NCBI GenBank assembly: GCA_964016885.1
Contig: OZ024740.1
Location: 231,570,001 to 231,634,000 of the forward strand
DNA: 64,000 nucleotides
DNA from: Eledone cirrhosa
Lineage: Eukaryota
Reading direction: 5' to 3'
Part shown: positions 4,606 through 55,569 of the stretch, piece after piece
How positions within the stretch are numbered: the first letter of the stretch is position 1
How the letters are laid out: each line of letters begins with the position of its first letter
Notes under the pieces: model-generated
Database searches by the model: none
The model's input: the letters and a program-made list of their open reading frames with translations, nothing else
Told to the model about the DNA's origin: nothing
Position numbers and translations under genes: made by a program

Positions 4606-4619
4606 TAATCATACATACA

Positions 4620-5390
4620 TACAACACCTGCTATATTGGCTCGCAGTTTGAAGGATATGCTTTTGCAATCCAAGAACAGGAAATCATTAAAAAATACCTA
4701 ATTCACAAAATAAATAGGGATGCAGGCAAAACACCTAGATATAACAACAAATACAAACTCTGCAGAATTAACATTGAAGATGTCACCTATGTCATAAGCA
4801 ACTGTCCAAAGATGTCATCATGGTACTATCTACTTATGAGGCATGATGTAGTGGCCAAAACACTATACAATGCAATCTATAGAAAAAATATAACAACAAA
4901 CATATTCAAAATTACAGCAATGGGAAAGACATATACATACATAATATGAAACAGTGCTGGTTGAATGTTCCAGTCAAAAACCCAATAAAATGCAAGCATA
5001 ACAGACCAGATATAGTGATATAGGACAGGGAAACATTACTAACTGCCTCAGTACAAATCTTGAGAAGCTGGGTTCCACAGAATCAGAGAGAACATAACTA
5101 GTTAGGAAACTACAAGTACAATTCATTAATTGAACTGTAAAAATATGTAAAACATTCCGAAAATTCTGCATGTAATAACTACATGTACAGATACAAAACA
5201 TGCAAGTGTACACATAATTCAAAGCATTCCAATCTACACATACAATAACATCAATACCAACACACACGTATGCAAGCAGACATGCCTAATTTACCTAATT
5301 GGTGTCTAAATTCCAATGAAAGTGTCTTGTTAGAAACCAACTTTCTCTCTATTGGTAAAAATTTATGAAATAATGAAACCAGAAGAACAT
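4620..5390 (+). mobile_element. 3' fragment of an R4/Dong-like retrotransposon (CCHC knuckle, REL endonuclease region, 3' UTR); same family as 11990-16240
   Basis: ORF 4587..4949 EGYAFAIQEQEI...LCRINIEDVTYVISNC...RHDVVAK matches ORF 12309..12881; 3' end aaaccagaag runs into (CATA)n. Confidence 0.85.
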
Positions 5391-5494
5391 ACATACATAC
5401 ATACATACATACATACATACATACATACATACATACATACACACATACATACATGCATACATGCATGCATGCATGCATAGATACATACATACAG

Positions 5495-8400
5495 CCTACG
5501 TGATGATGGGCAGATATGGAAGTTTATTAAGGCTAGTGAAACATGGAAAAGAGATACCAGCTGGTCTGAAAACACCGTACCCACAACAACTGACATAAAA
5601 AAACTGAAAAAACTCTGGGAAACTAAATCAGAACAACCTGCCATCCTAGCACATAATCATAGACTGGAATCAAGGTACAAATTGTTGTCCTTGAATGCAT
5701 GTAGTCTATGCAATAAGATACATCTTTTTGACTCCTACATCATGAGTATCGACCCTGACTTCATTAGTCATGGAAACATGGGCACATTCCTTACTCTGTG
5801 ATGGGATTTTCAGCATGACTGGCTACAATATGTTTCGTAAAGACCGCATTAATCGTCGTGGTGGTGGTGTAATGGTCAACGTTCAGTCAAATTCTTTGGC
5901 AATTCCTTGTGTTGATTTGAACCAATTGCAGCAAGATGTATTTTTCTGCGATATACATATGACCATATCAACACTGCTACTTGGAATCGTTTACTGTCCC
6001 CCAAATTACCATCAGGACACTCAACTTTGTGATATCCTTAGAGTTGCTGCCAGGAAAACAGCCACTTATGTTTTTATTGCAGGAGACTTTAATCACCCTG
6101 AGATTGACTGGGAAACCTTTCGTTGGCCACTAAGTGCAAATGATTTCCTTGAGCTAGTGCTGGACTCGAACTGGTCCCAAGTAGTCACCTCCCCAACAAG
6201 AGGTGGCAACACTTTGGATCTACTCTTCACCACTATTCCTGAAACGGTTATTAGTGTTACTACTTAGGAACCTTTAGCTGACTCTGATCATGCTATGTTC
6301 ATTGCCAATCTATCTCTTATGGGCAGTAACAAAAACTACAACGATTTCCAAATTGCTCGCTTTGACTGGAATAAAGCAGACTGGAACTCTTACTGCACCG
6401 TGCTGCGACGTCCAAACTGGTTTGAGTTCTAAGATTCTGGAGATGTCAACATTCTACTCCAGAACATACTGAACTCAATATGGACAGCATGTGCAGCATC
6501 AGTGCTGAAAAAACATCCCAAAAGTGCAATTTGGGAGACTGCAACAGTCCGTCTTGCCAGAAAAGAATGTTGTAACGCTGAACGTGAGTACAAACTGCAT
6601 AAATCAGATATCAATAGGAAAAAGTGAAATAAATCATCCAACTATCTCAAACAGGTGACAAAAAAAGGCAGTGCTTCAATTTGAGCAGTGCATAGCAGCC
6701 AGCCCTGACAGTAAGGTGTTCTGGAAGTATGTTTACTCAAAGCAGAGGCCTTACTCTCCAGTTGGTCCTCTTCGCAATCCCCACACAAGCCAGGTTACTG
6801 ACGACCCCAAGGAATGCACAGAACTCATTGCTGAATGCTATGCAGGCATCATTTTCACTATTGAAGACCAGAGTTTACCGTCTCCACCACCTCTGACATT
6901 GGATCTATTACAACTATGGAATTTACACCTGCAATGCTGCGATGTCACCTTAAAAATAAATGCAACCATGCCTTTCCAGGTCTTGATGGTGTTACGTACC
7001 TGTTTCTCAAACGTGGTGGGTACTTCCTTCTGCACCAGCTATCACGCTTCTTCCAATTCTGTATGAACAACGGTGCTACTCCAGAACAGTGGAAAACTGC
7101 CAGTGTCATTCCTCTGTTCAAAAAGGGTGACCGCACGTTGCCTGTCAACTATTGTCCAGTCAGTCTTACGAGCTGCATTGCCAAACTGATGGAATCCTGT
7201 TCCAGAGAAACACTTTGGAACTTCTGGAATTCTCACAGTCTTATCCATCCGGCCCTCGCAATTTGGATTTATCCCTAACTCCAGCTGCTGTGATCAACTT
7301 ATCGAGTTTCTTGAAGACATCACCCGGATGACTGATGGCGGCTCATGGGTGAATGTTGTTTACCTTGACTTTGCTAAAGCTTTCAATTCTGTCCCACACA
7401 AGACTTATGGCAAAACTCTCTGCAATGGGTGTGAAGGATGATCTTTTTAACTGGTTGAAGTCCTTCATTCTCAGTTGAAGAGAGGTAGTCATGGTTCTAG
7501 GACAACATTCCTCACCGTATGAGATGTCATCTGGTGTACCACAGGGATCTGTTCTTGGCCCCCTTTTGTTTGTGGCATATATTAATGACATAGATGCCAA
7601 CTTAAAGAATGCCACAGTACTGAAATATGCAGATGACATCAAGCTGTACCTTGAAATCAAAACGAGAGATCCTGAACACTATAGATCTTGCTTTCAGTCT
7701 GACCTGGACACAATGCAACAATGGATCATGGACTGGCAACTCAAGCTGGTTGTGGATAAGTGTACCACCATGCATTTTGGGAATAAAAACCCAGCGTCCA
7801 CATACTCCCTCCACAATACTAATATCAAGAAGTCTTCTTGTGAACGTTACCTGGGCATTACGGTCAGCAGCGATTTGCGTTGGACGAAGCACGTCTCTAA
7901 AATTGTCAAGAAGGCCGAGGGTGTCTTAGCATCACTCACTAAGATCTTTGTCAGCCGCTCTCCAGGTATCTATTTAAAGCTCTATATAGCTATGGTGCAG
8001 CCACACTTAGAATTTGCATCACCAGTCTGGAACCCCTATCTTGCTCAGATCATTGACCGCTTGGAAACTGTTCAGCGACGTGCAACCAAGCTAAAACTCT
8101 CCATCAGGCATCTACCATACTCTGAACACCTTGCTCCCCTGGGCATGGATACATTGAAGCTCTGACGTCTGGCAACTGACTTGATAAAGACCCACAAAAT
8201 TATTAACCATCTTGCCAACAACAACCCTGAGTACATTTTTTATTTCCACGTGTCTAACACACGTGGGCATGCCCACAAAGTCAGAAAACAGCACAGCTCC
8301 CATGACTTTCGGAAACATTTTTTTCACGCTCAGAGTTGCTGAAGCATGGAACAAACTACCTGCATCAGTTATTAGCTGTCGAAACACTGCACCCTTTAAA

Positions 8401-9199: not shown

Positions 9200-9585
9200 T
9201 ATATATATACTTCGTTTTTGAATTTGTTTTATTGGAATTTTGTATTTTTAAACATATCTGTATACAGCTATGCTTGAAGCTAAATTATAATTCTATTCTG
9301 TTATAAGTTGAACCAACTTTCATATGCAAATGAGTTTAATCACCTCATTTACACAGATCAGAAAACTATATATTCTCACCTGTTTTCAATCCAGCAGTGC
9401 AAGAGCGGAAGGGATCGTCCTGATGAGAACCAGTTCAGTTCGAAATGCATCGACGATTGTCCCCCTTTCTTCTGCTGGACACCGCCAGGTGGCGATGGCT
9501 GCTGGTGATTGCATAGCTACAGCTTTTTTGAATGTTTATTTATAAACATACCATATTTCTTTAGAAATACAAAAATCCAATACAT
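9200..9585 (+). mobile_element. ~380-bp non-coding element carrying a hammerhead ribozyme; homolog at 42050-42410 (minus)
   Basis: Bounded by (TA)n; shares aatcacctcatttacacaga...gaaaactat and ttgtccccc...ctggac with the reverse complement of 42050-42410. Confidence 0.7.
9414..9457 (+). ncRNA. Minimal type I hammerhead ribozyme (predicted cleavage after AUC, C9451)
   Basis: Helix I ATCGTC/GACGAT; core CTGATGA 9420-9426; helix II GAAC-cagttca-GTTC; GAAA 9442-9445; palindromic helix III ATGCAT. Confidence 0.88.
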
Positions 9586-11989: not shown

Positions 11990-14900
11990 TGCTTCTGGTT
12001 TTATAATTTCACAAAGTGTTACCAATAGAGAGAGGATCGGTTTCTAACATAGACACAAGACTCTCTCATTGGAATTTACACAACATCAACTAGGTAGATT
12101 ATGTATGCATGCCTGCATGCATGCATGCATGCATGTGTAGATATGGATGTTATTGTATGTGTGGATGTGGATGTTTTGAGTCGTATGTGTGCATGTGTAT
12201 ATGCTTTGTATCTGTACATGTGTATATGCAGTTATTAGATGCAACATATTTTGAATGTTTCACATATTTTTACTGTTCCATTAATGGATTGTACTTGTAA
12301 TTTCCTAACTAGTTGTGTTCTTTCTCTTCCTTGAAGCCTAGCTTCTCAAGATTTATATTGAGGCAGTTACTGACATACCCCAGTACCCCAATAATCACAG
12401 GCATAAATCTGAAGGTGTAATCAGGGTGGAGTATCTGCATATTTCTCATCAGTTCTGCATAAATATTCTCCTTTTCGCTGATCTTTGATATTATATTGGC
12501 ACATGCTGTACAGCTAACTTCCACTACTGTGTATGCTTTCTTTTCCCTGTCCCATATCATAATATATGGTCTGTTATGTCTGCATTTTATTGGGGTTTTT
12601 ACTGGAACATTCCACCAGTACTCTTTCATATTATGTATATGGATGTCTTCCACATTGCTGTAGCTTTTAATGTGTTTATTATCTGGGCTATCTTTTCTAC
12701 TGATTGCATTGTACAGTGATTTGGCCACTACATCATGCCTCATAGGTAGATAGTACTGCGATGACATCTTTGGACAGCTGCTGATGACATGGGTGACATC
12801 TTCGATGTTAATTCTGCAGAGTCTGCACTTGTTATCACATCTAGGTGTTTTGCCTGCATCCCTATCTCTTTTGTGAATCATATTATTTCATGTTAATTTC
12901 CTGTTCTTGGATTGCAAAAGCGTATCCTTCAAAGTGGAAGCCAATATAGCGGTTGTTGGTCCAAGATAGACTACTTTCCTTATCTATATTACTCTGACTC
13001 TGGAGCTCCTGTCAACATATCCATGCATGCTATTTTGCTGATAAGCATGCAGTTTTTCATCCATGGATTCACTGAGATACAATTGAGCGACTTCCCTGGG
13101 TGTGAGTTTTTGATTATCACACAGGGAATATCTCTCGAGGAGTTCCTTCCCAACTCTCATGATCTGTTTCATGCAGATATACTTGCTCGAGAGACGGACT
13201 CCTACGCTTCGAGGTTCGTAGATGTTGTCGGAGGGATATAATTCAAATGCTGTCTGGACTGATGTTAGGCCTCTGCCTCCCTGCTTACGTTTCAAGTAAA
13301 GGCGGTCTATGTAACTGTTGATGTGGAAGTTTCCGGTGTTGTTTAGTATTTTTCGAGTTCCAACATCAACTGCTCGGATTTCGTCTATCGTCCAATTGAG
13401 TATTACAAACACAGCAAACACATTGTGAGCCACTGTTTTGTTTTGCGCAGAGAGTTCGGATGACTAAATCTTTCTTAATCGGGTGTAGTATTCCCTGGTT
13501 ACGCGTTCCTTATTACAGATACCATTATAGGATATGTTCTCATCTATCCCTAGGTATCTGTAGCAGTCCTCATCAGATATCGGTGAAACAGTTAGGCCAT
13601 TGATGACAATGTTGCTAGATTTGGTTGTTGTTTTTTCCCGCTTTACAGTCATGTATGAGCATTTATCTTGGCCAAACTCAATTCCTATATCCTTTGAGAA
13701 CGCTGTAACCAGGTCAAGATTTTTCTTCATCCCATCCATGTTCTTGGCATAGAGTTTCAGATAATCCACAAAGAAATTATGGGTTAGGTTCGTATTTCTG
13801 TCCTCCGGTGAGCCAATGATGTATCCTTCACATTTCTTGAGCAGAAAGGACAAGGGGTTTAATGACAGGATGAATAATATCACAGAGAGACTGTCTTCCT
13901 GAAATATACCCCTGCGATATTTTCTTTTATCAGTGAAAATAGAGTCCTCCCTCTCTGTCTTTAACCTTAGGATAGTAGCCCAAGAAGACAGCTTCTCTAT
14001 GGCTCTGATAATAATGTCTGGGACTTTAGCAAGTTGGAGGGCCTCTATCATCCAAGTGTGGGGAGCAGAATCGAAAGCTTTCCTATAGTCCAGCCAGACT
14101 GTAGCCATATTCCTCCTAAGTTGTCGCATCTCCGACATCGCAGTTTTGTTGATTAGGAGTTGTTCAGCACATCCCCAAACCCGTTTCTTTCCAGCTGCTT
14201 GTTCATGTGTGATGATGTTATTATTTTCACAGTGATCTTGGAGGAATAGGTTCAGGCACGCTGTATACATCTTATACATCAGGTTCTGGCATGCAATGGG
14301 TCGGTAGTTTTTTTGCCAAGTGGGTATCTTTGTTCTTGGGGACCAGTAATGTTTGTGCTAATGTCAACCATTCTGGTATAAGTGTATCTCCCTTAAGAAC
14401 TTGTTGGTAGTGGTCAGTAAGATACCTCCGATAGAATATCAGTTTTTTGTACCAGTAGCCGACAATCATGTCTCTTCCTGGTGTTTTCTTATATTGGAGT
14501 TTTCCTATCACAGTCTCAAGGGTACCCTCACTTATTTCGTATGTTTTTGTTGTAGTGTAGGAGCAATAGTTATTTCGGATTTCTCTTAGCCACACTGCAT
14601 CTTGGTCGAAATTCTTCTTTTCACCCCATATTTTTCTCCAAAAGGAATCTATGTCTTTCTGGGATGGGGCCTCAGTGACACTTATTATTTTGCCATTCAT
14701 ATCTCTATAGATTAATGTTTGGTTTCGTCCGAATCTTTTATTAAGCACTTTTCTTTCATCTACCTTCTTCAGGTATCGGCGTTTCTCGCTAACAACTCTC
14801 AATTCTTGTTTGAGGGTGATCAGCTTATATTGAAGAGTTCTGGTTCTACTGTTACCAAACATCGTCTTTATTTTATTTTTCACACTTTGTTGGTGAGGAG

Positions 14901-16240
14901 TGAGGTCTTTTTGTGTTTGTTTTCAAGTAAGGAGCATTGTCACATATCCTATGGTTTTTCGTAGGTCAGCAATCTTTTTTTTCTATTTTAGTTATATATG
15001 ATGGTATTTTTGGTTGTGTTTTGTTCTTGTTAATATCCCTGCTATCACCAAGATAATGCTTCACTGTCGTTGCTAAGGCATATAAGCAGGCGTTGATTTG
15101 CCAATAGATTGGGGTTTTTATCCGTCGTAAATATTCATCCCCTATTTCGTCAATAACACGTAATATTTCATTATTTGTTTTTTTATTGGGCGGTGGATTG
15201 GCAGTATCGGTAGAGGGTCGGACGCCATGTTTTCCAGCATAGTTACGTCCCTTTACGATCTGAGTTCAAATCCCGCCGAGGTTCACTTTGCCTTTCATCC
15301 TTACGGGGTCGATAAAATAAAGTACCAGTAATGCACTGGGTAATTGCTGGCCTTGTGCCTAAAGTAGAAACAATTATTTGTTTTTTTATTAAATATTGTT
15401 GTTTTAATACGTTCAGCAAGAGAGATATTTATTAATTTCTCTCTGGAAGATTTCGTTGAGGGAAATTTTCAATTGTTTATACTTTTGATTATTATCATTA
15501 TCGATAGTATTTTCCACAACAGTCGAGGTAGACTCGAATGGTACACGTGGTGTCAAATTTCTTCGATTATTATTATTATTTCTTCGATTATTATTATTAT
15601 CGATAGTATTTTCCCCAGCATTCGAGATAGACTTAGATGGTAAACGTGGTGTCAAGTTTCCTACAGGCATAGTTGATTCAAGGCACTGTTCGACCTGGCT
15701 GCTAGGAAGTCTAGTAGCACGTGTTGTTGATTCCATGTTTGTTGTGGGGGACTTGCAATTAATAATATTTATCTTAATTTTACATTTAACGAACGTCGCT
15801 TGTTGGCGTAATTGTTTCGCTGTGAAATAATTTAGCTCTGGGTGTATTTCGTCCCAGTGTAGCTTCATTCTGTTCATATAGCCAATGGAGGGATTGATTT
15901 TTGACATTTTATAACAATTAAATAAATCATCATTAAGTTCGCAACTCCAAGAGAAATGCGTTTTATAAATTCCGTTTCTTCTGTAGCTACAACTGAATAA
16001 ATTTTGTTTACCTTTCTCGTTGTTGTTTTTCTTCGGTATTCCACTGATATTGTTTATTGTTGATGTTGTGTTCAACCATGCTGTTTGTAGCAAATCCTTG
16101 TAAAATGAATTATGTATTTAATCGGATATCTCCACGAATTCGAATAAAAGGTGTCTTCAAGAGATATTGTTAGAAGAATAGCCAGTTATTCAACATGACT
16201 GTAGTTGTGGCATTACTGTCGGAGATAGTATTCATCTTAA
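11990..16240 (-). mobile_element. Near full-length but frameshifted R4/Dong-like non-LTR retrotransposon (N-terminal domain, RT, CCHC, restriction-like endonuclease)
   Basis: ORF pieces 15413..16093, 14272..14883 (FWRKIW, PGRDMIVGYWYK), 13464..14279 (WLDYRKAFDS.PH, RGIFQEDSLS, HNFFVDYLKLYA), 12984..13433 (RLYL.R..GGRGL) and 12309..12881 (CRLC...H....C, RHD, RP.I.I.D...VEV). A SINE is inserted at 15188. Confidence 0.9.
15188..15376 (+). mobile_element. tRNA-derived SINE inserted in the R4/Dong element
   Basis: A-box-like tggcagtatcggtag, B-box-like gagttcaaatccc, core gcctttcatccttacggggtcgataaaataaagtaccag shared with >15 copies in the window. Confidence 0.85.
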
Positions 16241-19724: not shown

Positions 19725-19780
<56 letters not shown>

Positions 19781-19786
<6 letters not shown>

Positions 19787-22700
19787 TAGAATATTCGAAA
19801 ATATTCTGTATGTTTATAATAAACATTTTGAAGACCTAATCGCTATAGAATAGAATACGTCACGTATTACAATTAGATTCTCGATAAAAGCAAGGGAAGT
19901 AATCTACGCGTTTCATTCTTGTTAGAATTCATCAGGACTACATATCCAGTGCTTTTATCGAGAATGACACAGCTAGAGACTTATAGAATACTTAGCTGTG
20001 TACAGGAACTGGTTTGAAAGAGCGGTTGCCGGTCCGGCAGAAATTAGAAATTGGAATAAATGCTCTGAAATAGCGATATATATGTGAATATAGACATAGA
20101 ATATTCGAAAATATTCTGTATGTTTATAATAAACATTTTGAAGACCTAATCGCTATAGAATAGAATACGTCACGTATTACAATTAGATTCTCGATAAAAG
20201 CAAGGGAAGTAATCTACGCGTTTCATTCTTGTTAGAATTCATCAGGACTACATATCCAGTGCTTTTATCGAGAATGACACAGCTAGAGACTTATAGAATA
20301 CTTAGCTGTGTACAGGAACTGGTTTGAAAGAGCGGTTGCCGGTCCGGCAGAAATTAGAAATTGGAATAAATGCTCTGAAATAGCGATATATATGTGAATA
20401 TAGACATAGAATATTCGAAAATATTCTGTATGTTTATAATAAACATTTTGAAGACCTAATCGCTATAGAATAGAATACGTCACGTATTACAATTAGATTC
20501 TCGATAAAAGCAAGGGAAGTAATCTACGCGTTTCATTCTTGTTAGAATTCATCAGGACTACATATCCAGTGCTTTTATCGAGAATGACACAGCTAGAGAC
20601 TTATAGAATACTTAGCTGTGTACAGGAACTGGTTTGAAAGAGCGGTTGCCGGTCCGGCAGAAATTAGAAATTGGAATAAATGCTCTGAAATAGCGATATA
20701 TATGTGAATATAGACATAGAATATTCGAAAATATTCTGTATGTTTATAATAAACATTTTGAAGACCTAATCGCTATAGAATAGAATACGTCACGTATTAC
20801 AATTAGATTCTCGATAAAAGCAAGGGAAGTAATCTACGCGTTTCATTCTTGTTAGAATTCATCAGGACTACATATCCAGTGCTTTTATCGAGAATGACAC
20901 AGCTAGAGACTTATAGAATACTTAGCTGTGTACAGGAACTGGTTTGAAAGAGCGGTTGCCGGTCCGGCAGAAATTAGAAATTGGAATAAATGCTCTGAAA
21001 TAGCGATATATATGTGAATATAGACATAGAATATTCGAAAATATTCTGTATGTTTATAATAAACATTTTGAAGACCTAATCGCTATAGAATAGAATACGT
21101 CACGTATTACAATTAGATTCTCGATAAAAGCAAGGGAAGTAATCTACGCGTTTCATTCTTGTTAGAATTCATCAGGACTACATATCCAGTGCTTTTATCG
21201 AGAATGACACAGCTAGAGACTTATAGAATACTTAGCTGTGTACAGGAACTGGTTTGAAAGAGCGGTTGCCGGTCCGGCAGAAATTAGAAATTGGAATAAA
21301 TGCTCTGAAATAGCGATATATATGTGAATATAGACATAGAATATTCGAAAATATTCTGTATGTTTATAATAAACATTTTGAAGACCTAATCGCTATAGAA
21401 TAGAATACGTCACGTATTACAATTAGATTCTCGATAAAAGCAAGGGAAGTAATCTACGCGTTTCATTCTTGTTAGAATTCATCAGGACTACATATCCAGT
21501 GCTTTTATCGAGAATGACACAGCTAGAGACTTATAGAATACTTAGCTGTGTACAGGAACTGGTTTGAAAGAGCGGTTGCCGGTCCGGCAGAAATTAGAAA
21601 TTGGAATAAATGCTCTGAAATAGCGATATATATGTGAATATAGACATAGAATATTCGAAAATATTCTGTATGTTTATAATAAACATTTTGAAGACCTAAT
21701 CGCTATAGAATAGAATACGTCACGTATTACAATTAGATTCTCGATAAAAGCAAGGGAAGTAATCTACGCGTTTCATTCTTGTTAGAATTCATCAGGACTA
21801 CATATCCAGTGCTTTTATCGAGAATGACACAGCTAGAGACTTATAGAATACTTAGCTGTGTACAGGAACTGGTTTGAAAGAGCGGTTGCCGGTCCGGCAG
21901 AAATTAGAAATTGGAATAAATGCTCTGAAATAGCGATATATATGTGAATATAGACATAGAATATTCGAAAATATTCTGTATGTTTATAATAAACATTTTG
22001 AAGACCTAATCGCTATAGAATAGAATACGTCACGTATTACAATTAGATTCTCGATAAAAGCAAGGGAAGTAATCTACGCGTTTCATTCTTGTTAGAATTC
22101 ATCAGGACTACATATCCAGTGCTTTTATCGAGAATGACACAGCTAGAGACTTATAGAATACTTAGCTGTGTACAGGAACTGGTTTGAAAGAGCGGTTGCC
22201 GGTCCGGCAGAAATTAGAAATTGGAATAAATGCTCTGAAATAGCGATATATATGTGAATATAGACATAGAATATTCGAAAATATTCTGTATGTTTATAAT
22301 AAACATTTTGAAGACCTAATCGCTATAGAATAGAATACGTCACGTATTACAATTAGATTCTCGATAAAAGCAAGGGAAGTAATCTACGCGTTTCATTCTT
22401 GTTAGAATTCATCAGGACTACATATCCAGTGCTTTTATCGAGAATGACACAGCTAGAGACTTATAGAATACTTAGCTGTGTACAGGAACTGGTTTGAAAG
22501 AGCGGTTGCCGGTCCGGCAGAAATTAGAAATTGGAATAAATGCTCTGAAATAGCGATATATATGTGAATATAGACATAGAATATTCGAAAATATTCTGTA
22601 TGTTTATAATAAACATTTTGAAGACCTAATCGCTATAGAATAGAATACGTCACGTATTACAATTAGATTCTCGATAAAAGCAAGGGAAGTAATCTACGCG

Positions 22701-25700
22701 TTTCATTCTTGTTAGAATTCATCAGGACTACATATCCAGTGCTTTTATCGAGAATGACACAGCTAGAGACTTATAGAATACTTAGCTGTGTACAGGAACT
22801 GGTTTGAAAGAGCGGTTGCCGGTCCGGCAGAAATTAGAAATTGGAATAAATGCTCTGAAATAGCGATATATATGTGAATATAGACATAGAATATTCGAAA
22901 ATATTCTGTATGTTTATAATAAACATTTTGAAGACCTAATCGCTATAGAATAGAATACGTCACGTATTACAATTAGATTCTCGATAAAAGCAAGGGAAGT
23001 AATCTACGCGTTTCATTCTTGTTAGAATTCATCAGGACTACATATCCAGTGCTTTTATCGAGAATGACACAGCTAGAGACTTATAGAATACTTAGCTGTG
23101 TACAGGAACTGGTTTGAAAGAGCGGTTGCCGGTCCGGCAGAAATTAGAAATTGGAATAAATGCTCTGAAATAGCGATATATATGTGAATATAGACATAGA
23201 ATATTCGAAAATATTCTGTATGTTTATAATAAACATTTTGAAGACCTAATCGCTATAGAATAGAATACGTCACGTATTACAATTAGATTCTCGATAAAAG
23301 CAAGGGAAGTAATCTAAGCGTTTCATTCTTGTTAGAATTCATCAGGACTACATATCCAGTGCTTTTATCGAGAATGACACAGCTAGAGACTTATAGAATA
23401 CTTAGCTGTGTACAGGAACTGGTTTGAAAGAGCGGTTGCCGGTCCGGCAGAAATTAGAAATTGGAATAAATGCTCTGAAATAGCGATATATATGTGAATA
23501 TAGACATAGAATATTCGAAAATATTCTGTATGTTTATAATAAACATTTTGAAGACCTAATCGCTATAGAATAGAATACGTCACGTATTACAATTAGATTC
23601 TCGATAAAAGCAAGGGAAGTAATCTACGCGTTTCATTCTTGTTAGAATTCATCAGGACTACATATCCAGTGCTTTTATCGAGAATGACACAGCTAGAGAC
23701 TTATAGAATACTTAGCTGTGTACAGGAACTGGTTTGAAAGAGCGGTTGCCGGTCCGGCAGAAATTAGAAATTGGAATAAATGCTCTGAAATAGCGATATA
23801 TATGTGAATATAGACATAGAATATTCGAAAATATTCTGTATGTTTATAATAAACATTTTGAAGACCTAATCGCTATAGAATAGAATACGTCACGTATTAC
23901 AATTAGATTCTCGATAAAAGCAAGGGAAGTAATCTACGCGTTTCATTCTTGTTAGAATTCATCAGGACTACATATCCAGTGCTTTTATCGAGAATGACAC
24001 AGCTAGAGACTTATAGAATACTTAGCTGTGTACAGGAACTGGTTTGAAAGAGCGGTTGCCGGTCCGGCAGAAATTAGAAATTGGAATAAATGCTCTGAAA
24101 TAGCGATATATATGTGAATATAGACATAGAATATTCGAAAATATTCTGTATGTTTATAATAAACATTTTGAAGACCTAATCGCTATAGAATAGAATACGT
24201 CACGTATTACAATTAGATTCTCGATAAAAGCAAGGGAAGTAATCTACGCGTTTCATTCTTGTTAGAATTCATCAGGACTACATATCCAGTGCTTTTATCG
24301 AGAATGACACAGCTAGAGACTTATAGAATACTTAGCTGTGTACAGGAACTGGTTTGAAAGAGCGGTTGCCGGTCCGGCAGAAATTAGAAATTGGAATAAA
24401 TGCTCTGAAATAGCGATATATATGTGAATATAGACATAGAATATTCGAAAATATTCTGTATGTTTATAATAAACATTTTGAAGACCTAATCGCTATAGAA
24501 TAGAATACGTCACGTATTACAATTAGATTCTCGATAAAAGCAAGGGAAGTAATCTACGCGTTTCATTCTTGTTAGAATTCATCAGGACTACATATCCAGT
24601 GCTTTTATCGAGAATGACACAGCTAGAGACTTATAGAATACTTAGCTGTGTACAGGAACTGGTTTGAAAGAGCGGTTGCCGGTCCGGCAGAAATTAGAAA
24701 TTGGAATAAATGCTCTGAAATAGCGATATATATGTGAATATAGACATAGAATATTCGAAAATATTCTGTATGTTTATAATAAACATTTTGAAGACCTAAT
24801 CGCTATAGAATAGAATACGTCACGTATTACAATTAGATTCTCGATAAAAGCAAGGGAAGTAATCTACGCGTTTCATTCTTGTTAGAATTCATCAGGACTA
24901 CATATCCAGTGCTTTTATCGAGAATGACACAGCTAGAGACTTATAGAATACTTAGCTGTGTACAGGAACTGGTTTGAAAGAGCGGTTGCCGGTCCGGCAG
25001 AAATTAGAAATTGGAATAAATGCTCTGAAATAGCGATATATATGTGAATATAGACATAGAATATTCGAAAATATTCTGTATGTTTATAATAAACATTTTG
25101 AAGACCTAATCGCTATAGAATAGAATACGTCACGTATTACAATTAGATTCTCGATAAAAGCAAGGGAAGTAATCTACGCGTTTCATTCTTGTTAGAATTC
25201 ATCAGGACTACATATCCAGTGCTTTTATCGAGAATGACACAGCTAGAGACTTATAGAATACTTAGCTGTGTACAGGAACTGGTTTGAAAGAGCGGTTGCC
25301 GGTCCGGCAGAAATTAGAAATTGGAATAAATGCTCTGAAATAGCGATATATATGTGAATATAGACATAGAATATTCGAAAATATTCTGTATGTTTATAAT
25401 AAACATTTTGAAGACCTAATCGCTATAGAATAGAATACGTCACGTATTACAATTAGATTCTCGATAAAAGCAAGGGAAGTAATCTACGCGTTTCATTCTT
25501 GTTAGAATTCATCAGGACTACATATCCAGTGCTTTTATCGAGAATGACACAGCTAGAGACTTATAGAATACTTAGCTGTGTACAGGAACTGGTTTGAAAG
25601 AGCGGTTGCCGGTCCGGCAGAAATTAGAAATTGGAATAAATGCTCTGAAATAGCGATATATATGTGAATATAGACATAGAATATTCGAAAATATTCTGTA

Positions 25701-28700
25701 TGTTTATAATAAACATTTTGAAGACCTAATCGCTATAGAATAGAATACGTCACGTATTACAATTAGATTCTCGATAAAAGCAAGGGAAGTAATCTACGCG
25801 TTTCATTCTTGTTAGAATTCATCAGGACTACATATCCAGTGCTTTTATCGAGAATGACACAGCTAGAGACTTATAGAATACTTAGCTGTGTACAGGAACT
25901 GGTTTGAAAGAGCGGTTGCCGGTCCGGCAGAAATTAGAAATTGGAATAAATGCTCTGAAATAGCGATATATATGTGAATATAGACATAGAATATTCGAAA
26001 ATATTCTGTATGTTTATAATAAACATTTTGAAGACCTAATCGCTATAGAATAGAATACGTCACGTATTACAATTAGATTCTCGATAAAAGCAAGGGAAGT
26101 AATCTACGCGTTTCATTCTTGTTAGAATTCATCAGGACTACATATCCAGTGCTTTTATCGAGAATGACACAGCTAGAGACTTATAGAATACTTAGCTGTG
26201 TACAGGAACTGGTTTGAAAGAGCGGTTGCCGGTCCGGCAGAAATTAGAAATTGGAATAAATGCTCTGAAATAGCGATATATATGTGAATATAGACATAGA
26301 ATATTCGAAAATATTCTGTATGTTTATAATAAACATTTTGAAGACCTAATCGCTATAGAATAGAATACGTCACGTATTACAATTAGATTCTCGATAAAAG
26401 CAAGGGAAGTAATCTACGCGTTTCATTCTTGTTAGAATTCATCAGGACTACATATCCAGTGCTTTTATCGAGAATGACACAGCTAGAGACTTATAGAATA
26501 CTTAGCTGTGTACAGGAACTGGTTTGAAAGAGCGGTTGCCGGTCCGGCAGAAATTAGAAATTGGAATAAATGCTCTGAAATAGCGATATATATGTGAATA
26601 TAGACATAGAATATTCGAAAATATTCTGTATGTTTATAATAAACATTTTGAAGACCTAATCGCTATAGAATAGAATACGTCACGTATTACAATTAGATTC
26701 TCGATAAAAGCAAGGGAAGTAATCTACGCGTTTCATTCTTGTTAGAATTCATCAGGACTACATATCCAGTGCTTTTATCGAGAATGACACAGCTAGAGAC
26801 TTATAGAATACTTAGCTGTGTACAGGAACTGGTTTGAAAGAGCGGTTGCCGGTCCGGCAGAAATTAGAAATTGGAATAAATGCTCTGAAATAGCGATATA
26901 TATGTGAATATAGACATAGAATATTCGAAAATATTCTGTATGTTTATAATAAACATTTTGAAGACCTAATCGCTATAGAATAGAATACGTCACGTATTAC
27001 AATTAGATTCTCGATAAAAGCAAGGGAAGTAATCTACGCGTTTCATTCTTGTTAGAATTCATCAGGACTACATATCCAGTGCTTTTATCGAGAATGACAC
27101 AGCTAGAGACTTATAGAATACTTAGCTGTGTACAGGAACTGGTTTGAAAGAGCGGTTGCCGGTCCGGCAGAAATTAGAAATTGGAATAAATGCTCTGAAA
27201 TAGCGATATATATGTGAATATAGACATAGAATATTCGAAAATATTCTGTATGTTTATAATAAACATTTTGAAGACCTAATCGCTATAGAATAGAATACGT
27301 CACGTATTACAATTAGATTCTCGATAAAAGCAAGGGAAGTAATCTACGCGTTTCATTCTTGTTAGAATTCATCAGGACTACATATCCAGTGCTTTTATCG
27401 AGAATGACACAGCTAGAGACTTATAGAATACTTAGCTGTGTACAGGAACTGGTTTGAAAGAGCGGTTGCCGGTCCGGCAGAAATTAGAAATTGGAATAAA
27501 TGCTCTGAAATAGCGATATATATGTGAATATAGACATAGAATATTCGAAAATATTCTGTATGTTTATAATAAACATTTTGAAGACCTAATCGCTATAGAA
27601 TAGAATACGTCACGTATTACAATTAGATTCTCGATAAAAGCAAGGGAAGTAATCTACGCGTTTCATTCTTGTTAGAATTCATCAGGACTACATATCCAGT
27701 GCTTTTATCGAGAATGACACAGCTAGAGACTTATAGAATACTTAGCTGTGTACAGGAACTGGTTTGAAAGAGCGGTTGCCGGTCCGGCAGAAATTAGAAA
27801 TTGGAATAAATGCTCTGAAATAGCGATATATATGTGAATATAGACATAGAATATTCGAAAATATTCTGTATGTTTATAATAAACATTTTGAAGACCTAAT
27901 CGCTATAGAATAGAATACGTCACGTATTACAATTAGATTCTCGATAAAAGCAAGGGAAGTAATCTACGCGTTTCATTCTTGTTAGAATTCATCAGGACTA
28001 CATATCCAGTGCTTTTATCGAGAATGACACAGCTAGAGACTTATAGAATACTTAGCTGTGTACAGGAACTGGTTTGAAAGAGCGGTTGCCGGTCCGGCAG
28101 AAATTAGAAATTGGAATAAATGCTCTGAAATAGCGATATATATGTGAATATAGACATAGAATATTCGAAAATATTCTGTATGTTTATAATAAACATTTTG
28201 AAGACCTAATCGCTATAGAATAGAATACGTCACGTATTACAATTAGATTCTCGATAAAAGCAAGGGAAGTAATCTACGCGTTTCATTCTTGTTAGAATTC
28301 ATCAGGACTACATATCCAGTGCTTTTATCGAGAATGACACAGCTAGAGACTTATAGAATACTTAGCTGTGTACAGGAACTGGTTTGAAAGAGCGGTTGCC
28401 GGTCCGGCAGAAATTAGAAATTGGAATAAATGCTCTGAAATAGCGATATATATGTGAATATAGACATAGAATATTCGAAAATATTCTGTATGTTTATAAT
28501 AAACATTTTGAAGACCTAATCGCTATAGAATAGAATACGTCACGTATTACAATTAGATTCTCGATAAAAGCAAGGGAAGTAATCTACGCGTTTCATTCTT
28601 GTTAGAATTCATCAGGACTACATATCCAGTGCTTTTATCGAGAATGACACAGCTAGAGACTTATAGAATACTTAGCTGTGTACAGGAACTGGTTTGAAAG

Positions 28701-28860
28701 AGCGGTTGCCGGTCCGGCAGAAATTAGAAATTGGAATAAATGCTCTGAAATAGCGATATATATGTGAATATAGACATAGAATATTCGAAAATATTCTGTA
28801 TGTTTATAATAAACATTTTGAAGACCTAATCGCTATAGAATAGAATACGTCACGTATTAC
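19781..28860 (-). mobile_element. Left arm of a retrozyme-like array: ~29.3 head-to-tail 310-bp units, one hammerhead per complete unit on the minus strand
   Basis: tagacataga recurs every 310 bp from 19781; units essentially identical; starts directly after (TA)n. Confidence 0.92.
19899..19941 (-). ncRNA. Minimal type I hammerhead (first of 29 in the left arm, period 310 bp)
   Basis: Minus strand: GUAGUC-CUGAUGA-AUUCU-aaca-AGAAU-GAAA-CGC-GUA-GAUUAC. Confidence 0.9.
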
Positions 28861-31017
28861 CGGACCGGCAACCGCTCTTTCAAACCAGTTCCTGTACACA
28901 GCTAAGTATTCTATAAGTCTCTAGCTGTGTCATTCTCGATAAAAGCACTGGATATGTAGTCCTGATGAATTCTAACAAGAATGAAACGCGTAGATTACTT
29001 CCCTTGCTTTTATCGAGAATCTAATTGTAATACGTGACGTATTCTATTCTATAGCGATTAGGTCTTCAAAATGTTTATTATAAACATACAGAATATTTTC
29101 GAATATTCTATGTCTATATTCACATATATATCGCTATTTCAGAGCATTTATTCCAATTTCTAATTTCTGCCGGACCGGCAACCGCTCTTTCAAACCAGTT
29201 CCTGTACACAGCTAAGTATTCTATAAGTCTCTAGCTGTGTCATTCTCGATAAAAGCACTGGATATGTAGTCCTGATGAATTCTAACAAGAATGAAACGCG
29301 TAGATTACTTCCCTTGCTTTTATCGAGAATCTAATTGTAATACGTGACGTATTCTATTCTATAGCGATTAGGTCTTCAAAATGTTTATTATAAACATACA
29401 GAATATTTTCGAATATTCTATGTCTATATTCACATATATATCGCTATTTCAGAGCATTTATTCCAATTTCTAATTTCTGCCGGACCGGCAACCGCTCTTT
29501 CAAACCAGTTCCTGTACACAGCTAAGTATTCTATAAGTCTCTAGCTGTGTCATTCTCGATAAAAGCACTGGATATGTAGTCCTGATGAATTCTAACAAGA
29601 ATGAAACGCGTAGATTACTTCCCTTGCTTTTATCGAGAATCTAATTGTAATACGTGACGTATTCTATTCTATAGCGATTAGGTCTTCAAAATGTTTATTA
29701 TAAACATACAGAATATTTTCGAATATTCTATGTCTATATTCACATATATATCGCTATTTCAGAGCATTTATTCCAATTTCTAATTTCTGCCGGACCGGCA
29801 ACCGCTCTTTCAAACCAGTTCCTGTACACAGCTAAGTATTCTATAAGTCTCTAGCTGTGTCATTCTCGATAAAAGCACTGGATATGTAGTCCTGATGAAT
29901 TCTAACAAGAATGAAACGCGTAGATTACTTCCCTTGCTTTTATCGAGAATCTAATTGTAATACGTGACGTATTCTATTCTATAGCGATTAGGTCTTCAAA
30001 ATGTTTATTATAAACATACAGAATATTTTCGAATATTCTATGTCTATATTCACATATATATCGCTATTTCAGAGCATTTATTCCAATTTCTAATTTCTGC
30101 CGGACCGGCAACCGCTCTTTCAAACCAGTTCCTGTACACAGCTAAGTATTCTATAAGTCTCTAGCTGTGTCATTCTCGATAAAAGCACTGGATATGTAGT
30201 CCTGATGAATTCTAACAAGAATGAAACGCGTAGATTACTTCCCTTGCTTTTATCGAGAATCTAATTGTAATACGTGACGTATTCTATTCTATAGCGATTA
30301 GGTCTTCAAAATGTTTATTATAAACATACAGAATATTTTCGAATATTCTATGTCTATTTTCACATATATATCGCTATTTCAGAGCATTTATTCCAATTTC
30401 TAATTTCTGCCGGACCGGCAACCGCTCTTTCAAACCAGTTCCTGTACACAGCTAAGTATTCTATAAGTCTCTAGCTGTGTCATTCTCGATAAAAGCACTG
30501 GATATGTAGTCCTGATGAATTCTAACAAGAATGAAACGCGTAGATTACTTCCCTTGCTTTTATCGAGAATCTAATTGTAATACGTGACGTATTCTATTCT
30601 ATAGCGATTAGGTCTTCAAAATGTTTATTATAAACATACAGAATATTTTCGAATATTCTATGTCTATATTCACATATATATCGCTATTTCAGAGCATTTA
30701 TTCCAATTTCTAATTTCTGCCGGACCGGCAACCGCTCTTTCAAACCAGTTCCTGTACACAGCTAAGTATTCTATAAGTCTCTAGCTGTGTCATTCTCGAT
30801 AAAAGCACTGGATATGTAGTCCTGATGAATTCTAACAAGAATGAAACGCGTAGATTACTTCCCTTGCTTTTATCGAGAATCTAATTGTAATACGTGACGT
30901 ATTCTATTCTATAGCGATTAGGTCTTCAAAATGTTTATTATAAACATACAGAATATTTTCGAATATTCTATGTCTATATTCACATATATATCGCTATTTC
31001 AGAGCATTTATTCCAAT
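28861..31017 (+). mobile_element. Right (inverted) arm of the 310-bp array: ~7 units, hammerheads on the plus strand
   Basis: Abrupt switch at cacgtattac|cggaccggca to the reverse complement of the unit; ends ttccaat into (TA)n. Confidence 0.92.
28956..28998 (+). ncRNA. Minimal type I hammerhead (first of 7 in the right arm); predicted cleavage after GUA, A28992
   Basis: Helix I GTAGTC/GATTAC, core CTGATGA 28962-28968, helix II ATTCT/AGAAT, GAAA 28983-28986, palindromic helix III ACGCGT. Outer stem ATTCTCGATAAAAGCA/TGCTTTTATCGAGAAT. Confidence 0.92.
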
Positions 31018-31529
31018 ATATATATATATATATATAAGGAGCAGAAATCCAACTGGAGTCTTTTTAAGAATATTTATTTGTTTCCTTTACCGGTTTCACA
31101 GTTCTTATGCTATTCAAAAGTAGAATTGAGATGGAAGGTTTGTGGTTTTTCTCGTATTGGTTGGTGTTCAAAAGTTATTTCTGTTTTATGTGGAAAGAGT
31201 GGCTCGAATTGCTGGGGTTTTAAAAAACTAATTTTGTTGGTTGATGACTGTCACGTGAATAAATCTAATAAATTTCGCGCCAGTTCGCGTCACAAAGTTC
31301 TTATTGTATTTGTCTTTAAAAATCTGACTCAAATTGTTGTTATTTTATAAGTGTAATTTGGTTGGTTGATGACTGTCACGTGAATAAGTTCATTAAATTT
31401 CGCGCCAGTTCGTGTTTGAGGGTTCTTTATTGCCATTTTCACGATTTCTCTTTTTCATGATTTGTCATAGAGAGTTTTGTCCCAAACAAAAGATGTGTGT
31501 GCGCCTGTATGTGTAATGGTAATAATGTT

Positions 31530-35808: not shown

Positions 35809-36188
<380 letters not shown>

Positions 36189-39148
36189 TTTACTAGATTT
36201 CTATAAGAATATAACAATTTTGTCACTACTTTAAAACAATAGCTTACGGTCTTCAAAATGCTTTTAATTAAGCATAAAGTGTATTGCAAAATACATTATA
36301 TATACATCCATATATATATTGCTATTTCAGAGCTCCAATTCTAATTTTTAATTTCTGCCTGACCAACAACGCTCTGCATAATCAGCTCCTGATTATTTAC
36401 TAGATTTCTATAAGAATATAACATCAATGAACTCAGTAAACAGGTGGGGTGTTTGGCCTTGATAAGCTTCAACCAAAGCGAAACAAGTCTTGTCGGCTTA
36501 TCTCCCCTGTTTGCTGAGATCAAAGTGAGTGAATTTGTCACTACTTTAAAACAATAGCTTACGGTCTTCAAAATGCTTTTCATCAAGCATAAAGTGTATT
36601 GCAAAATACATTATATATACATCCATATATATATTGCTATTTCAGAGCTCCAATTCTAATCTTTAATTTCTGCCTGACCAACAACCGCTCTGCATAATCA
36701 GCTCCTGATTATTTATTAGATTTCTATAAGAATATAACATCAATGATCTCAGTAAACAGGTGGGGTAGTTGGCCTTGATAAGCTTCAATCAAAGCGAAAC
36801 AAGTCTTGTCGGCTTATCTCCCCTGTTTGCTGAGATCAAAGTGAGTGAATTTGTCACTACTTTAAAACAATAGCTTACGGTCTTCAAAATGCTTTTCATC
36901 AAGCATAAAGTGTATTGCAAAATACATTATATATACATCCATATATATATTGCTATTTCAGAGCTCCAATTCTAATCTTTAATTTCTGCCTGACCAACAA
37001 CCGCTCTGCATAATCAGCTCCTGATTATTTATTAGATTTCTATAAGAATATAACATCAATGATCTCAGTAAACAGGTGGGGTAGTTGGCCTTGATAAGCT
37101 TCAATCAAAGCGAAACAAGTCTTGTCGGCTTATCTCCCCTGTTTGCTGAGATCAAAGTGAGTGAATTTGTCACTACTTTAAAACAATAGCTTACGGTCTT
37201 CAAAATGCTTTTCATCAAGCATAAAGTGTATTGCAAAATACATTATATATACATCCATATATATATTGCTATTTCAGAGCTCCAATTCTAATCTTTAATT
37301 TCTGCCTGACCAACAACCGCTCTGCATAATCAGCTCCTGATTATTTATTAGATTTCTATAAGAATATAACATCAATGATCTCAGTAAACAGGTGGGGTAG
37401 TTGGCCTTGATAAGCTTCAACCAAAGCGAAACAAGTCTTGTCGGCTTATCTCCCCTGTTTGCTGAGATCAAAGTGAGTGAATTTGTCACTACTTTAAAAC
37501 AATAGCTTACGGTCTTCAAAATGCTTTTAATTAAGCATAAAGTGTATTGCAAAATACATTATATATACATCCATATATATATTGCTATTTCAGAGCTCCA
37601 ATTCTAATTTTTAATTTCTGCCTGACCAACAACCGCTCTGCATAATCAGCTCCATATTATTTACTAGATTTCTATAAGAATATAACATCAATGATCTCAG
37701 TAAACAGGTGGGGTAGTTGGCCTTGATAAGCTTCAATCAAAGCGAAACAAGTCTTGTCGGCTTATCTCCCGTTTGCTGAGATCAAAGTGAGTGAATTTGT
37801 CACTACTTTAAAACAATAGCTTACGGTCTTCAAAATGCTTTTCATCAAGCATAAAGTGTATTGCAAAATACATTATATATACATCCATATATATATTGCT
37901 ATTTCAGAGCTCCAATTCTAATCTTTAATTTCTGCCTGACCAACAACCGCTCTGCATAATCAGCTCCTGATTATTTATTAGATTTCTATAAGAATATAAC
38001 ATCAATGATCTCAGTAAACAGGTGGGGTAGTTGGCCTTGATAAGCTTCAATCAAAGCGAAACAAGTCTTGTCGGCTTATCTCCCCTGTTTGCTGAGATCA
38101 AAGTGAGTGAATTTGTCACTACTTTAAAACAATAGCTTACGGTCTTCAAAATGCTTTTCATCAAGCATAAAGTGTATTGCAAAATACATTATATATACAT
38201 CCATATATATATTGCTATTTCAGAGCTCCAATTCTAATCTTTAATTTCTGCCTGACCAACAACCGCTCTGCATAATCAGCTCCTGATTATTTATTAGATT
38301 TCTATAAGAATATAACATCAATGATCTCAGTAAACAGGTGGGGTAGTTGGCCTTGATAAGCTTCAATCAAAGCGAAACAAGTCTTGTCGGCTTATCTCCC
38401 CTGTTTGCTGAGATCAAAGTGAGTGAATTTGTCACTACTTTAAAACAATAGCTTACGGTCTTCAAAATGCTTTTCATCAAGCATAAAGTGTATTGCAAAA
38501 TACATTATATATACATCCATATATATATTGCTATTTCAGAGCTCCAATTCTAATCTTTAATTTCTGCCTGACCAACAACCGCTCTGCATAATCAGCTCCT
38601 GATTATTTATTAGATTTCTATAAGAATATAACATCAATGATCTCAGTAAACAGGTGGGGTAGTTGGCCTTGATAAGCTTCAATCAAAGCGAAACAAGTCT
38701 TGTCGGCTTATCTCCCCTGTTTGCTGAGATCAAAGTGAGTGAATTTGTCACTACTTTAAAACAATAGCTTACGGTCTTCAAAATGCTTTTCATCAAGCAT
38801 AAAGTGTATTGCAAAATACATTATATATACATCCATATATATATTGCTATTTCAGAGCTCCAATTCTAATCTTTAATTTCTGCCTGACCAACAACCGCTC
38901 TGCATAATCAGCTCCTGATTATTTATTAGATTTCTATAAGAATATAACATCAATGATCTCAGTAAACAGGTGGGGTAGTTGGCCTTGATAAGCTTCAACC
39001 AAAGCGAAACAAGTCTTGTCGGCTTATCTCCCCTGTTTGCTGAGATCAAAGTGAGTGAATTTGTCACTACTTTAAAACAATAGCTTACGGTCTTCAAAAT
39101 GCTTTTAATTAAGCATAAAGTGTATTGCAAAATACATTATATATACAT

Positions 39149-39152
<4 letters not shown>
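36189..39152 (+). mobile_element. Right arm of the 316-bp array: one internally deleted unit plus 9 hammerhead-bearing units
   Basis: tgctatttcagagc at 36951, 37267, etc. (period 316); ends catcc into (TA)n; shares blocks with the 310-bp unit. Confidence 0.92.
36771..36814 (+). ncRNA. Type I hammerhead with a U3-A8 variant core (representative of 10 copies)
   Basis: GGCC-TTGATAA-GCTT-caatca-AAGC-GAAACAA-gtc-TTGTC-GGCT; outer stem GATCTCAGTAAACAGG/CCTGTTTGCTGAGATC. Confidence 0.85.
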
Positions 39153-39187: not shown

Positions 39188-39326
39188 AACGAGTAGGACC
39201 CCGACGGCTGAGCTCAAGCCGTTTAGACGGCTAATTCTGGACTGAATTAGCCGTCGAAACGGCTTGAACTCAGCCGTCGGGGTCCTACTTGTTCCTATTA
39301 CCTACTCTACTACCACATTTCTTCCG

Positions 39327-39490: not shown

Positions 39491-39514
39491 TTATATATAT
39501 ATATATATATAAAC

Positions 39515-41118
39515 ATATAAATGTAAGTATGTATGTATACGTACATACATATATGTATACAGACGTACAGTAGTATGCATATATATACATACCTGCACAC
39601 ATATATATATGCACGTATCGGTTTACCGAACATTTGCTATAATGCTCGGTTTGTTTGTAAATAAACAAACAGCCCGAATTATGACGTACAGTGTTTAGGC
39701 AACCACTTCACCTTTTTGTTCAACACTGACACAGGAACAATGTACTAGTTTCAAGCTTATTAGCTATCGTCAGCATCGTATACCTTCCTGCCAGATGGTT
39801 GAACGCCTGAAAGTATATACTTTCTTTATGCATATTGACGGCTGAGCAGCCCAATTTGCATATCGAGTGAGTTTAATCAGTCGGGCGCACGGAAACGATA
39901 AATGGAATAGAATGAAACGAAATTTCATTTCTCACTCTTAGTACGGCAGCTACTTAAATGTAAATATGTATGTATGTATACTTACATACATATATGTATA
40001 CAGACGTACAGTATTATGTATATATATACATACATGCACACATATATATATGCACGTATCGGTTTACCGAACATTTATTATAATGCTCGGTTTGTTTGGA
40101 AACAAACAAACAGCCCGAATTATGCCGTACAGTGTTTAGGCAACCACGTCACCTTTTTGTTCAACACTGACACAGGAACTATGTACTAGTTTCAAGCTTA
40201 TTAGCTATCGTCAGCATCGGATACCTTCCTGCCAGATGGTTGAACGTCTGAAAGTATATACTTTCCTTATGCATATTAACGGCTGAGCAGCCCAGTTTGC
40301 ATATCGAGTGAGTTTAGTCGACCGGGGGCACCGAAAACGATAAATGGAATAGAATGAAATGAAATTTCATTTGTCACTCTTAGTACGGCAGTTACTTAAA
40401 TGTAAGTATGTATGTATACGTACATACATATATGTATACAGACGTACAGTAGTATGTATATATATACATACATGCATACATATATATATGCACGTATCGG
40501 TTTACCGAACATTTATTATAATGCTCGGTTTGTTTGTAAACAAACAAACAGCCCGAATTATGCCGCACAGTGTTTAGGCAACCACGTCACCTTTTTGTTC
40601 AACACGGACACAGGAACGATGTACTAGTTTCAAGCTTATTAGCTATCGTCAGCATCGTATACCTTCCTGCCAGATGGTTGAAGGTTTGAAAGTATATACT
40701 TTCCTTATGCATATTAACGGCTGAGCAGCCCAATTTGCATATCGAGTGAGTTTAGTCGGCCGGGCGCACCGAAAACGATAAATGGAATAGAATGGCAGGA
40801 AGGTATACAATGCTGACGATAGCTAATAAGCTTGAAACTAGTACATCGTTCCTGCGTCAGTGTTGAACAAAAGGTGTCGTGGTTGCCTAAACACTGTACG
40901 GCATAATTCGGGCTGTTTATTTACAAACAAACCGAGCATTATAATAAATTTTCGGTAAACCGATACGTGCATATATATATGTGGTCATGTATGTATATAT
41001 ATACATACTACTGTACGTCTGTAATATATGTATGTATGTATACATACATACATACTTACATTTAAGTAACTACCGTACTAAGAGTGAGAAATGAAATTTC
41101 GTTTCATTCTATTCCATT

Positions 41119-45666: not shown

Positions 45667-45964
45667 TTATATATACATTTCGAATACCTGATGATGTCAC
45701 CGGATTCATACTGAACCCGGTCATTGAAATGTTCATAGTATAATAAACCTTTAAGGAATTATACCAGTTCAGCATCCTGATATTTTATAATAGTTAACTC
45801 CATACTCACAGCACCGACAACACAAACGAAGACGGGTGAGTTGCATTACGTCGAATGCTCTCCCTAATATTACATCAAGGTTGACTATACGGAATGACCA
45901 GTTCTAACCAGTGGTGAGCCAACAAACCTAAATGAATATATATATATATATATATCCAAAATTA

Positions 45965-50666: not shown

Positions 50667-50667
50667 A

Positions 50668-55507: not shown

Positions 55508-55569
55508 CTGAGGATGAAGGAAGGTGGAAGGAGGAGGAAGAAGAGGAGAATGGGTATATGCGTACGTAT

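Follow-up and report, generated by a model that had tools for sequence, protein, structure and literature searches.

What has written 36 copies of a 310-bp unit into one locus of the Eledone cirrhosa genome, and from which template? The window analysed here, a stretch of 64,000 nucleotides (nt) of contig OZ024740.1 (positions 231,570,001 to 231,634,000, forward strand), contains an array of such units, each with a hammerhead ribozyme core, between positions 19778 and 31017. This array represents a single insertion of a non-coding hammerhead element of 310 bp that is dispersed in the genome. With a probability that we put at roughly 0.6, a borrowed Penelope-like reverse transcriptase (RT)/endonuclease wrote it in one event, with both DNA ends priming on one RNA, which was probably a monomer circle.

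The array comprises two arms in opposite orientation. Tandem Repeats Finder reports 29.3 copies of period 310 at 19766-28860 and 7.0 copies at 28860-31017, with 99% matches. Arm 1 (29.3 units, minus strand) occupies 19778-28860 and arm 2 (7.0 units, plus strand) occupies 28860-31017; they meet head to head at 28860, a single base common to both arms. In unit positions, which are numbered from the predicted ribozyme cut, the inner break is at 35 in arm 1 and at 178 in arm 2. The outer (3') end of arm 1, on the 19778 side, lies at about 127-139 and overlaps an internal ATATATAT of the unit. The outer (3') end of arm 2 lies at 165. The former is referred to as the short end and the latter as the long end. 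According to the definition used in PMC8557442 and PMC11167929, the long end carries a tail of about 35 bp (30983-31017, plus strand; unit positions 131-165), which is missing from the other end. The array ends run straight into (TA)n, at 19750-19781 on the left, where (ACAT)n precedes it from about 19689, and at 31016-31037 on the right. There is no pair of long terminal repeats (LTRs); a primer-binding site and a polypurine tract were not searched for. Because (TA)n forms both flanks, no limits can be defined for a target-site duplication.

The core motif occurs 29 times on the minus strand and 7 times on the plus strand of the array; of the full motif, which runs over 43 nt from one strand of helix I to the other, 28 minus and 7 plus copies (35/36) are intact. 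The sole copy with an altered helix III palindrome is found at 23311-23351 (minus strand, core at 23345). The unit has a GC content of 34%, and a scan of a unit tetramer for open reading frames (ORFs) starting with ATG gave 30 amino acids as the longest, i.e., no coding capacity. The first-pass annotation of this DNA had described 36 ORF-less units of 310 bp (29 minus, 7 plus), each with a type I core and closed by a perfect 16-bp stem. This description holds, the stem being formed by unit positions 250-265 and 13-28. The 36 copies count as one event and not as 36 independent observations.

Genome counts were made by pattern matching, with end patterns defined as a unit end joined to (TA)n. 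They gave a total of 17,812 cores of the 310-bp family, corresponding to about 5.5 Mb, together with 1,015 exact matches to the long end (unit position 165) and 1,214 matches to the short end (about 130-139); the reversed controls gave 0 in both cases. The array of the window is a member of a dispersed family with at least 1,200 insertions, and not a local satellite. A classical satellite would consist of few long arrays without fixed ends that grow in place, and was rejected on the basis of the more than 1,200 short dispersed arrays, their fixed ends and the central inversion. Contigs of one public run (X2) hold the unit as well as its 287A>T and 295A>G variants. In the public runs X1, X3 and X6, the unit is present as one 340-nt contig (310 + 30) with 0-1 differences, a shape that tandem DNA also yields.

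We examined 75 insertions, all on contig C1 and drawn from among the matches listed: 13 picked by the core alone, 42 by the 165 end, and 20 by a short end without a 165 partner. Four of the 75 extended beyond the sequence examined around them. Among the core-picked arrays, 11/13 are two-armed with the arms pointing outward; all 11 have one end at 126-139, and the other end is at 165 (8 arrays), 170 (2) or 154 (1). The 42 insertions picked by the 165 end, which is the selection criterion there and hence no test of that end, have their opposite end at about 128-139 wherever it is seen. The short-end-picked insertions exhibit a second arm in 12/20 cases, always ending at 168-172, and one arm in the remaining 8. 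(TA)n is present at both ends in 12 of the 13 core-picked arrays, and the thirteenth (L037) is located in AT-rich non-repeat DNA.

Penelope-like elements leave an inverted 5'-truncated copy and a tail of 30-40 bp at one end, with a bias for (TA)n (PMC8557442 and a preprint). The offset between the short (about 130-139) and the long (165-172) ends of the 310-bp family matches this 30-40-bp tail. The insertions of the family work like a Penelope-type insertion, with an inverted truncated copy, a tail at one end and an AT-rich or (TA)n target. They share the inverted 5'-truncated copy, the partial tandems, the 30-40-bp tail and the (TA)n bias with Poseidon of the green anole (PMC11167929) and with Neptune and Naiad (PMC8557442). 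After purification, the anole Penelope-like protein makes cuts in both strands of AT-rich DNA; it initiates at two neighbouring sites within the RNA, downstream of the hammerhead, and the tail is defined by these sites (PMC11167929). Two internal sites of this kind are likewise shared, at roughly 85-125 nt downstream of the hammerhead cut in endonuclease-bearing Penelope-like elements and at 130-170 nt in the 310-bp family. Some differences are observed. Unlike those elements, the 310-bp family lacks an RT/endonuclease ORF and reaches 29 complete units per arm. In addition, a primer-like ATATATAT overlaps one of its two ends; the anole protein initiates without any homology (PMC11167929).

The arm lengths are roughly exponential, with a mean of 4-5 units, and correlate weakly within arrays (rho 0.33, p 0.028). 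The arm with the long end is the longer one in 28/45 arrays and the arm with the short end in 17/45. As this asymmetry occurs in both directions, simple fold-back copying of the first complementary DNA (cDNA) was rejected. The inner breaks are compatible with a uniform distribution over the unit (Kolmogorov-Smirnov p 0.12), and 2/90 are within 5 nt of the cut site, with 2.9 expected. The template was therefore not a cut linear RNA on which the enzyme runs off the 5' end.

The hammerhead of the unit comprises a 6-bp helix I, CUGAUGA, a 5-bp helix II, GAAA, and the palindrome ACGCGU as helix III. In the plus-strand example at 28956-28998, helix I is formed by 28956-28961 and 28993-28998, the core starts at 28962, and the cut is predicted after A28992, the same site as in the first-pass annotation. 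The 16-bp outer stem that extends helix I (28932-28947 with 29005-29020, plus strand) covaries in sister families. Only 4 of 20,000 dinucleotide shuffles of the unit fit the descriptor, and the fold of the unit has a z of -4.45, with 0/100 shuffles equally stable. The Rfam covariance models, which the annotation had suggested as a check, gave no match on the array at the gathering threshold; Hammerhead_HH9 aligns along its whole model at 23 bits, below its cut-off of 52 (E 0.06 in 12 kb and 0.0008 in 161 nt). Conservation and covariation among homologs, named there as a further test, are present: in an alignment of 23 motifs from the window and from sister families of the genome, 95.2% of 568 cells are paired and 19/25 pairs changed on both sides, compared with 34-43% paired in slid-register controls. 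As the aligned motifs are related to one another, the shuffle control does not amount to a probability, and the covariation counts as support. The core pair is C3-G8 in 11/23 motifs and U3-A8 in 11/23, a swap also known for Penelope-type hammerheads (PMC4209133). Among 593 family cores, 111 have a different base at the free position N7, in each case array-wide, whereas variation at the other core positions is limited to 5 single copies; a site-count test for selection on the core is, by itself, not significant (p 0.063).

The annotation had labelled the motif as minimal. This label does not fit, as a 6-bp helix I and a short palindromic helix III are those of the canonical metazoan type I motif (PMC4209133). 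According to our modelling, the monomer is unable to close helix III, and two domains are predicted to co-fold as a double hammerhead with a common 6-bp helix (-72.7 kcal/mol for the dimer with an intermolecular helix III vs 2 x -32.4 kcal/mol). Such an arrangement is known for canonical metazoan type I motifs (PMC4209133).

Based on its genomic features, the element is a non-LTR retrozyme, with self-cleavage and unit-length circles as predicted properties. The retrozyme reading of the first-pass annotation is thus supported in part: it fits the unit size, the type I core in each unit, the absence of an ORF, the 34% GC, the dispersal, the covarying fold and the modelled dimer, and 310-nt linear or circular RNA from this locus is a prediction. 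The annotation had overlooked the most telling feature: ends at fixed sites, (TA)n as the target and an inverted arm together make up a Penelope-type insertion footprint that recurs across the genome. Metazoan non-LTR retrozymes are described as ORF-less tandem units of 150-450 bp, with a low GC content, one canonical type I hammerhead each and thousands of copies (Cervera and de la Pena 2020, PMC7229834), and the 310-bp family resembles them in unit size, GC content, hammerhead per unit, absence of ORF and copy number. Axolotl retrozymes are reported in the same paper to be cut as dimers, one of them with a U.U mismatch at the base of helix II. Cleavage and circles are demonstrated for those retrozymes and are predictions for the 310-bp family. 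In contrast, the two-armed inverted layout, the fixed double end and the (TA)n target of the 310-bp family are not described in the available text of that paper, which proposes rolling-circle reverse transcription by a Penelope-like enzyme and presents no insertion evidence for it.

The retrozymes of Xenopus and other vertebrates, with amphibian units of about 316 bp, have been proposed to be non-autonomous partners of Penelope-like elements (10.64898/2026.07.22.740005). The evidence given in this preprint consists of co-occurrence and terminal-repeat homology, and local DNA amplification is proposed; the words "tail" and "mollus" occur 0 times in its available text. In the 310-bp family, in contrast, the evidence is an insertion footprint, and this indicates that the arrays arise whole at insertion. 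Algal non-autonomous Chlamys elements such as MRC1 are likewise non-coding Penelope passengers with multicopy head-to-tail insertions (PMC8557442). However, according to the available text of that paper, their clade lacks canonical hammerheads and they have 3' ends in common with their autonomous partners. The 310-bp sequence was matched to no described retrozyme family; no sequence library of these was searched. No report of the 310-bp family, or of a two-armed, tailed retrozyme insertion, was found in the literature searched, which covers few subscription journals. The class is already known; the insertion footprint was not encountered in this literature.

The genome is rich in elements that encode RT and GIY-YIG domains, carry hammerheads, target (TA)n and have two end sites. 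One locus (L113:4309-7122, minus strand) contains an intact ORF of 938 amino acids with RT, GIY-YIG and a CX4CxxC linker, which is Neptune-like as defined in PMC8557442. Repeats that contain U3-A8 hammerheads flank it within (TA)n, and the two end sites of that family are about 64 nt apart. An RT and GIY-YIG ORF was found neither within the unit nor as part of the element next to 55 + 20 insertions of the 310-bp family. The 50 GIY-YIG loci that we inspected comprise several Penelope-type families with hammerheads, and only their hammerhead cores resemble the unit; BLAST matches in these loci were independent insertions of sister retrozymes. An abundant young element (L118:1500-1930, L122:8500-8720 and L163-L195), with 3,727 exact matches (2,916 plus, 811 minus), exhibits a hammerhead core and helix II that nearly match those of the 310-bp family, and two end sites about 70 nt apart. 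It was rejected as a partner, having only the core in common with the unit and no consistent ORF between its inverted ends at 8 loci.

The sequence variants of the arrays bear on the template. In 35 of 36 arrays in which both arms have at least one unit, one haplotype is common to both arms; a single-pass variant in L063 was left out of this comparison. There are 18 haplotypes among the 36 arrays, and arm agreement of about 10% would be expected if the arms were independent. Twelve of the 18 haplotypes are seen once, and some span 17-22 units. The cut/ligation junction matches the majority of its locus in 589/599 copies, and 2 of the 10 deviating copies represent a second array in one locus. 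A monomer circle explains the shared haplotypes, the arm lengths, the breaks, the junctions and the fixation of a new mutation over 20 units.

The reading that we favour may be put as a series of steps. The array would be transcribed, and adjacent units would pair via ACGCGU, so that double hammerheads release 310-nt monomers. As in other retrozymes, a host ligase would circularise these monomers. Both strands would then be cut within (TA)n by a Penelope-type protein. Copying from one DNA end would begin at about 130-139, where AUAUAUAU in the RNA itself could base-pair with the primer, and copying from the other at 165-172, where there is little or no homology; these ends are seen, and their cause is conjectural. 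Each cDNA would lap the template several times and stop randomly, and the two would be joined head to head, which is the layout observed. In its most explicit form, in which the arrays record two-ended rolling-circle reverse transcription by a dimeric Penelope-type enzyme, from two fixed sites on one ribozyme-made 310-nt circle and with up to about 30 laps per arm, we give this scenario an even chance.

Several observations weigh against it. One arm only is present in 14/75 of the insertions examined. Two arrays (L066 and L213) carry a variant solely in the first pass of both arms, one (L060) is a mosaic of two haplotypes, and three (L051, L052 and L068) have variants in several scattered units, with a shared variant at passes 3 and 17 in L052. 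A monomer circle does not account for these six arrays, which would require templates of several units, a switch of template, gene conversion at a later time or an error in the assembly. As for the ribozyme, and in addition to the kinship of the aligned motifs, the majority haplotype (287A>T) has a U.U at the base of helix II, where 6/23 rows are unpaired, and 1/9 predicted retrozyme dimers cleaved in a recent study (10.64898/2026.07.22.740005). In vitro, the Penelope system used mainly uncleaved RNA as its template and did not require the ribozyme (PMC11167929). As for the enzyme, no unit-homologous terminal repeat was found beside an ORF in the 50 GIY-YIG loci (150 scored, 10,596 candidates), and 35 further loci were likewise without an autonomous element bearing such a repeat.

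Some of these points would be met by two-ended Penelope-type priming on a long linear multimer that comes from the transcription of existing arrays and is left uncleaved, with circles as a side product. The first-pass variants of L066 and L213, the passes 3 and 17 of L052, the mosaic of L060, the preference for uncleaved RNA in vitro and the weak correlation of arm lengths are all in its favour. Nevertheless, such a template would limit the arms to the length of the source or less and would not spread a new mutation array-wide, yet 18 array-wide haplotypes are found in 36 arrays. The catalytic core is also kept across haplotypes and families, implying that cutting matters for spread. We thus regard a multimer as the usual template as possible but unlikely.

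It is less probable still, and in our view doubtful, that a stump of a Penelope terminal repeat was inserted and then expanded locally by unequal crossing-over or slippage, with the ribozyme as a passenger. This model has been put forward for vertebrate retrozymes (10.64898/2026.07.22.740005), and the scattered recurrent variants of L051 and L068 are such as DNA-level exchange would give; one-armed or sub-unit short insertions also occur. However, unit length and phase are identical at all loci, flanking DNA is never included, both inverted arms are multi-unit with one haplotype and fixed end sites, and the units are about 99.9% alike. Moreover, the 50 GIY-YIG and 35 further loci revealed no coding element with the terminal repeat of the unit.

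A ribozyme-cut linear monomer, on which the enzyme repeatedly jumps from the 5' end to a 3' end, appears very improbable as the template. It is the direct product of ribozyme cutting, and three array-wide changes (2+C, 2+T and 2A>G) are located at position 2 past the cut. Nevertheless, there is no accumulation of inner breaks at the cut site (2/90) and the junction is uniform within arrays (589/599), whereas repeated jumping should produce ragged joints as well as run-offs. That the array is an ordinary satellite or an artefact of assembly, with a hammerhead-like motif by chance, is hardly credible: Rfam is silent at its gathering threshold and assembly polishing could inflate unit-to-unit identity, but against this stand the rarity of the motif among shuffles, the covarying fold, the dispersal over more than 1,200 loci that differ in haplotype and end at fixed sites, and the variants in the contigs of run X2.

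With regard to other features of the unit, CCAAT (unit positions 161-165) and TATAAG (226-232) are conserved in 8/8 aligned sister units. TATAAG sits upstream of the ribozyme stem, and the placement of CCAAT is shifted among sister units; the two motifs are possibly an internal promoter. The three different array-wide changes at unit position 2, two bases past the predicted cut, are found at L031, L033, L040, L053, L064, L071 and L075, and could be ligation scars or helix I repairs.

The window contains further hammerhead elements. A sister array at 35918-39150 has a U3-A8 core and a 316-bp unit whose identity with the 310-bp unit is 74% across 145 nt; it comprises a short minus arm and about 9 plus units, with (TA)n at both ends and end sites as in the 310-bp family. 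Its sister group has 1,431 exact ends in the genome. At 50660-51105, about 1.4 units of a sister family with a U3-A8 core are inserted; this insertion has a short inverted start and a (TA)n end. An unrelated array of 438-bp units at 39500-41000 comprises about 3 minus units and an inverted partial copy, and exhibits a type I hammerhead with a palindromic ACUAGU helix III. Lone hammerhead-like motifs at 9414-9460, 45682-45745, 60971-61015 and 63426-63465 are probably ends of Penelope-type elements. A near-perfect inverted repeat of about 110 bp is present between (TA)n runs at 39190-39300. Broken ORF fragments of the RT/endonuclease of long interspersed element (LINE) type are found at 3050-8200, 12300-16100 and 57560-57920. 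Finally, a single exon bordered by AG/GT at 55270-55510 (minus strand) belongs to a calmodulin-like EF-hand gene; a motif search found no further exons of this gene in the window.

The retrozyme class and its suspected Penelope-like partner are already published, which limits the surprise. The movement of animal retrozymes has so far only been proposed, either as rolling-circle copying by a Penelope-like enzyme or, in the 2026 preprint, as local DNA expansion. The more than 1,200 young insertions described here carry the tail of Penelope-like elements, have (TA)n as their target and share one haplotype between their two arms, and therefore favour copying at insertion. The footprint names the exact start sites, the template and candidate enzymes, so that retrozyme mobilisation becomes directly testable. 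It also bears on the origin of inverted Penelope-like insertions, and on a natural way of writing many tandem copies from a small RNA. If our reading is true, these arrays would prove, at the level of the genome, the retrozyme cycle that has been proposed, and would serve as a natural model for inverted Penelope-like insertions, which are so far unexplained; the 310-bp family would evolve as a population of RNA circles, with every insertion cloning one molecule.

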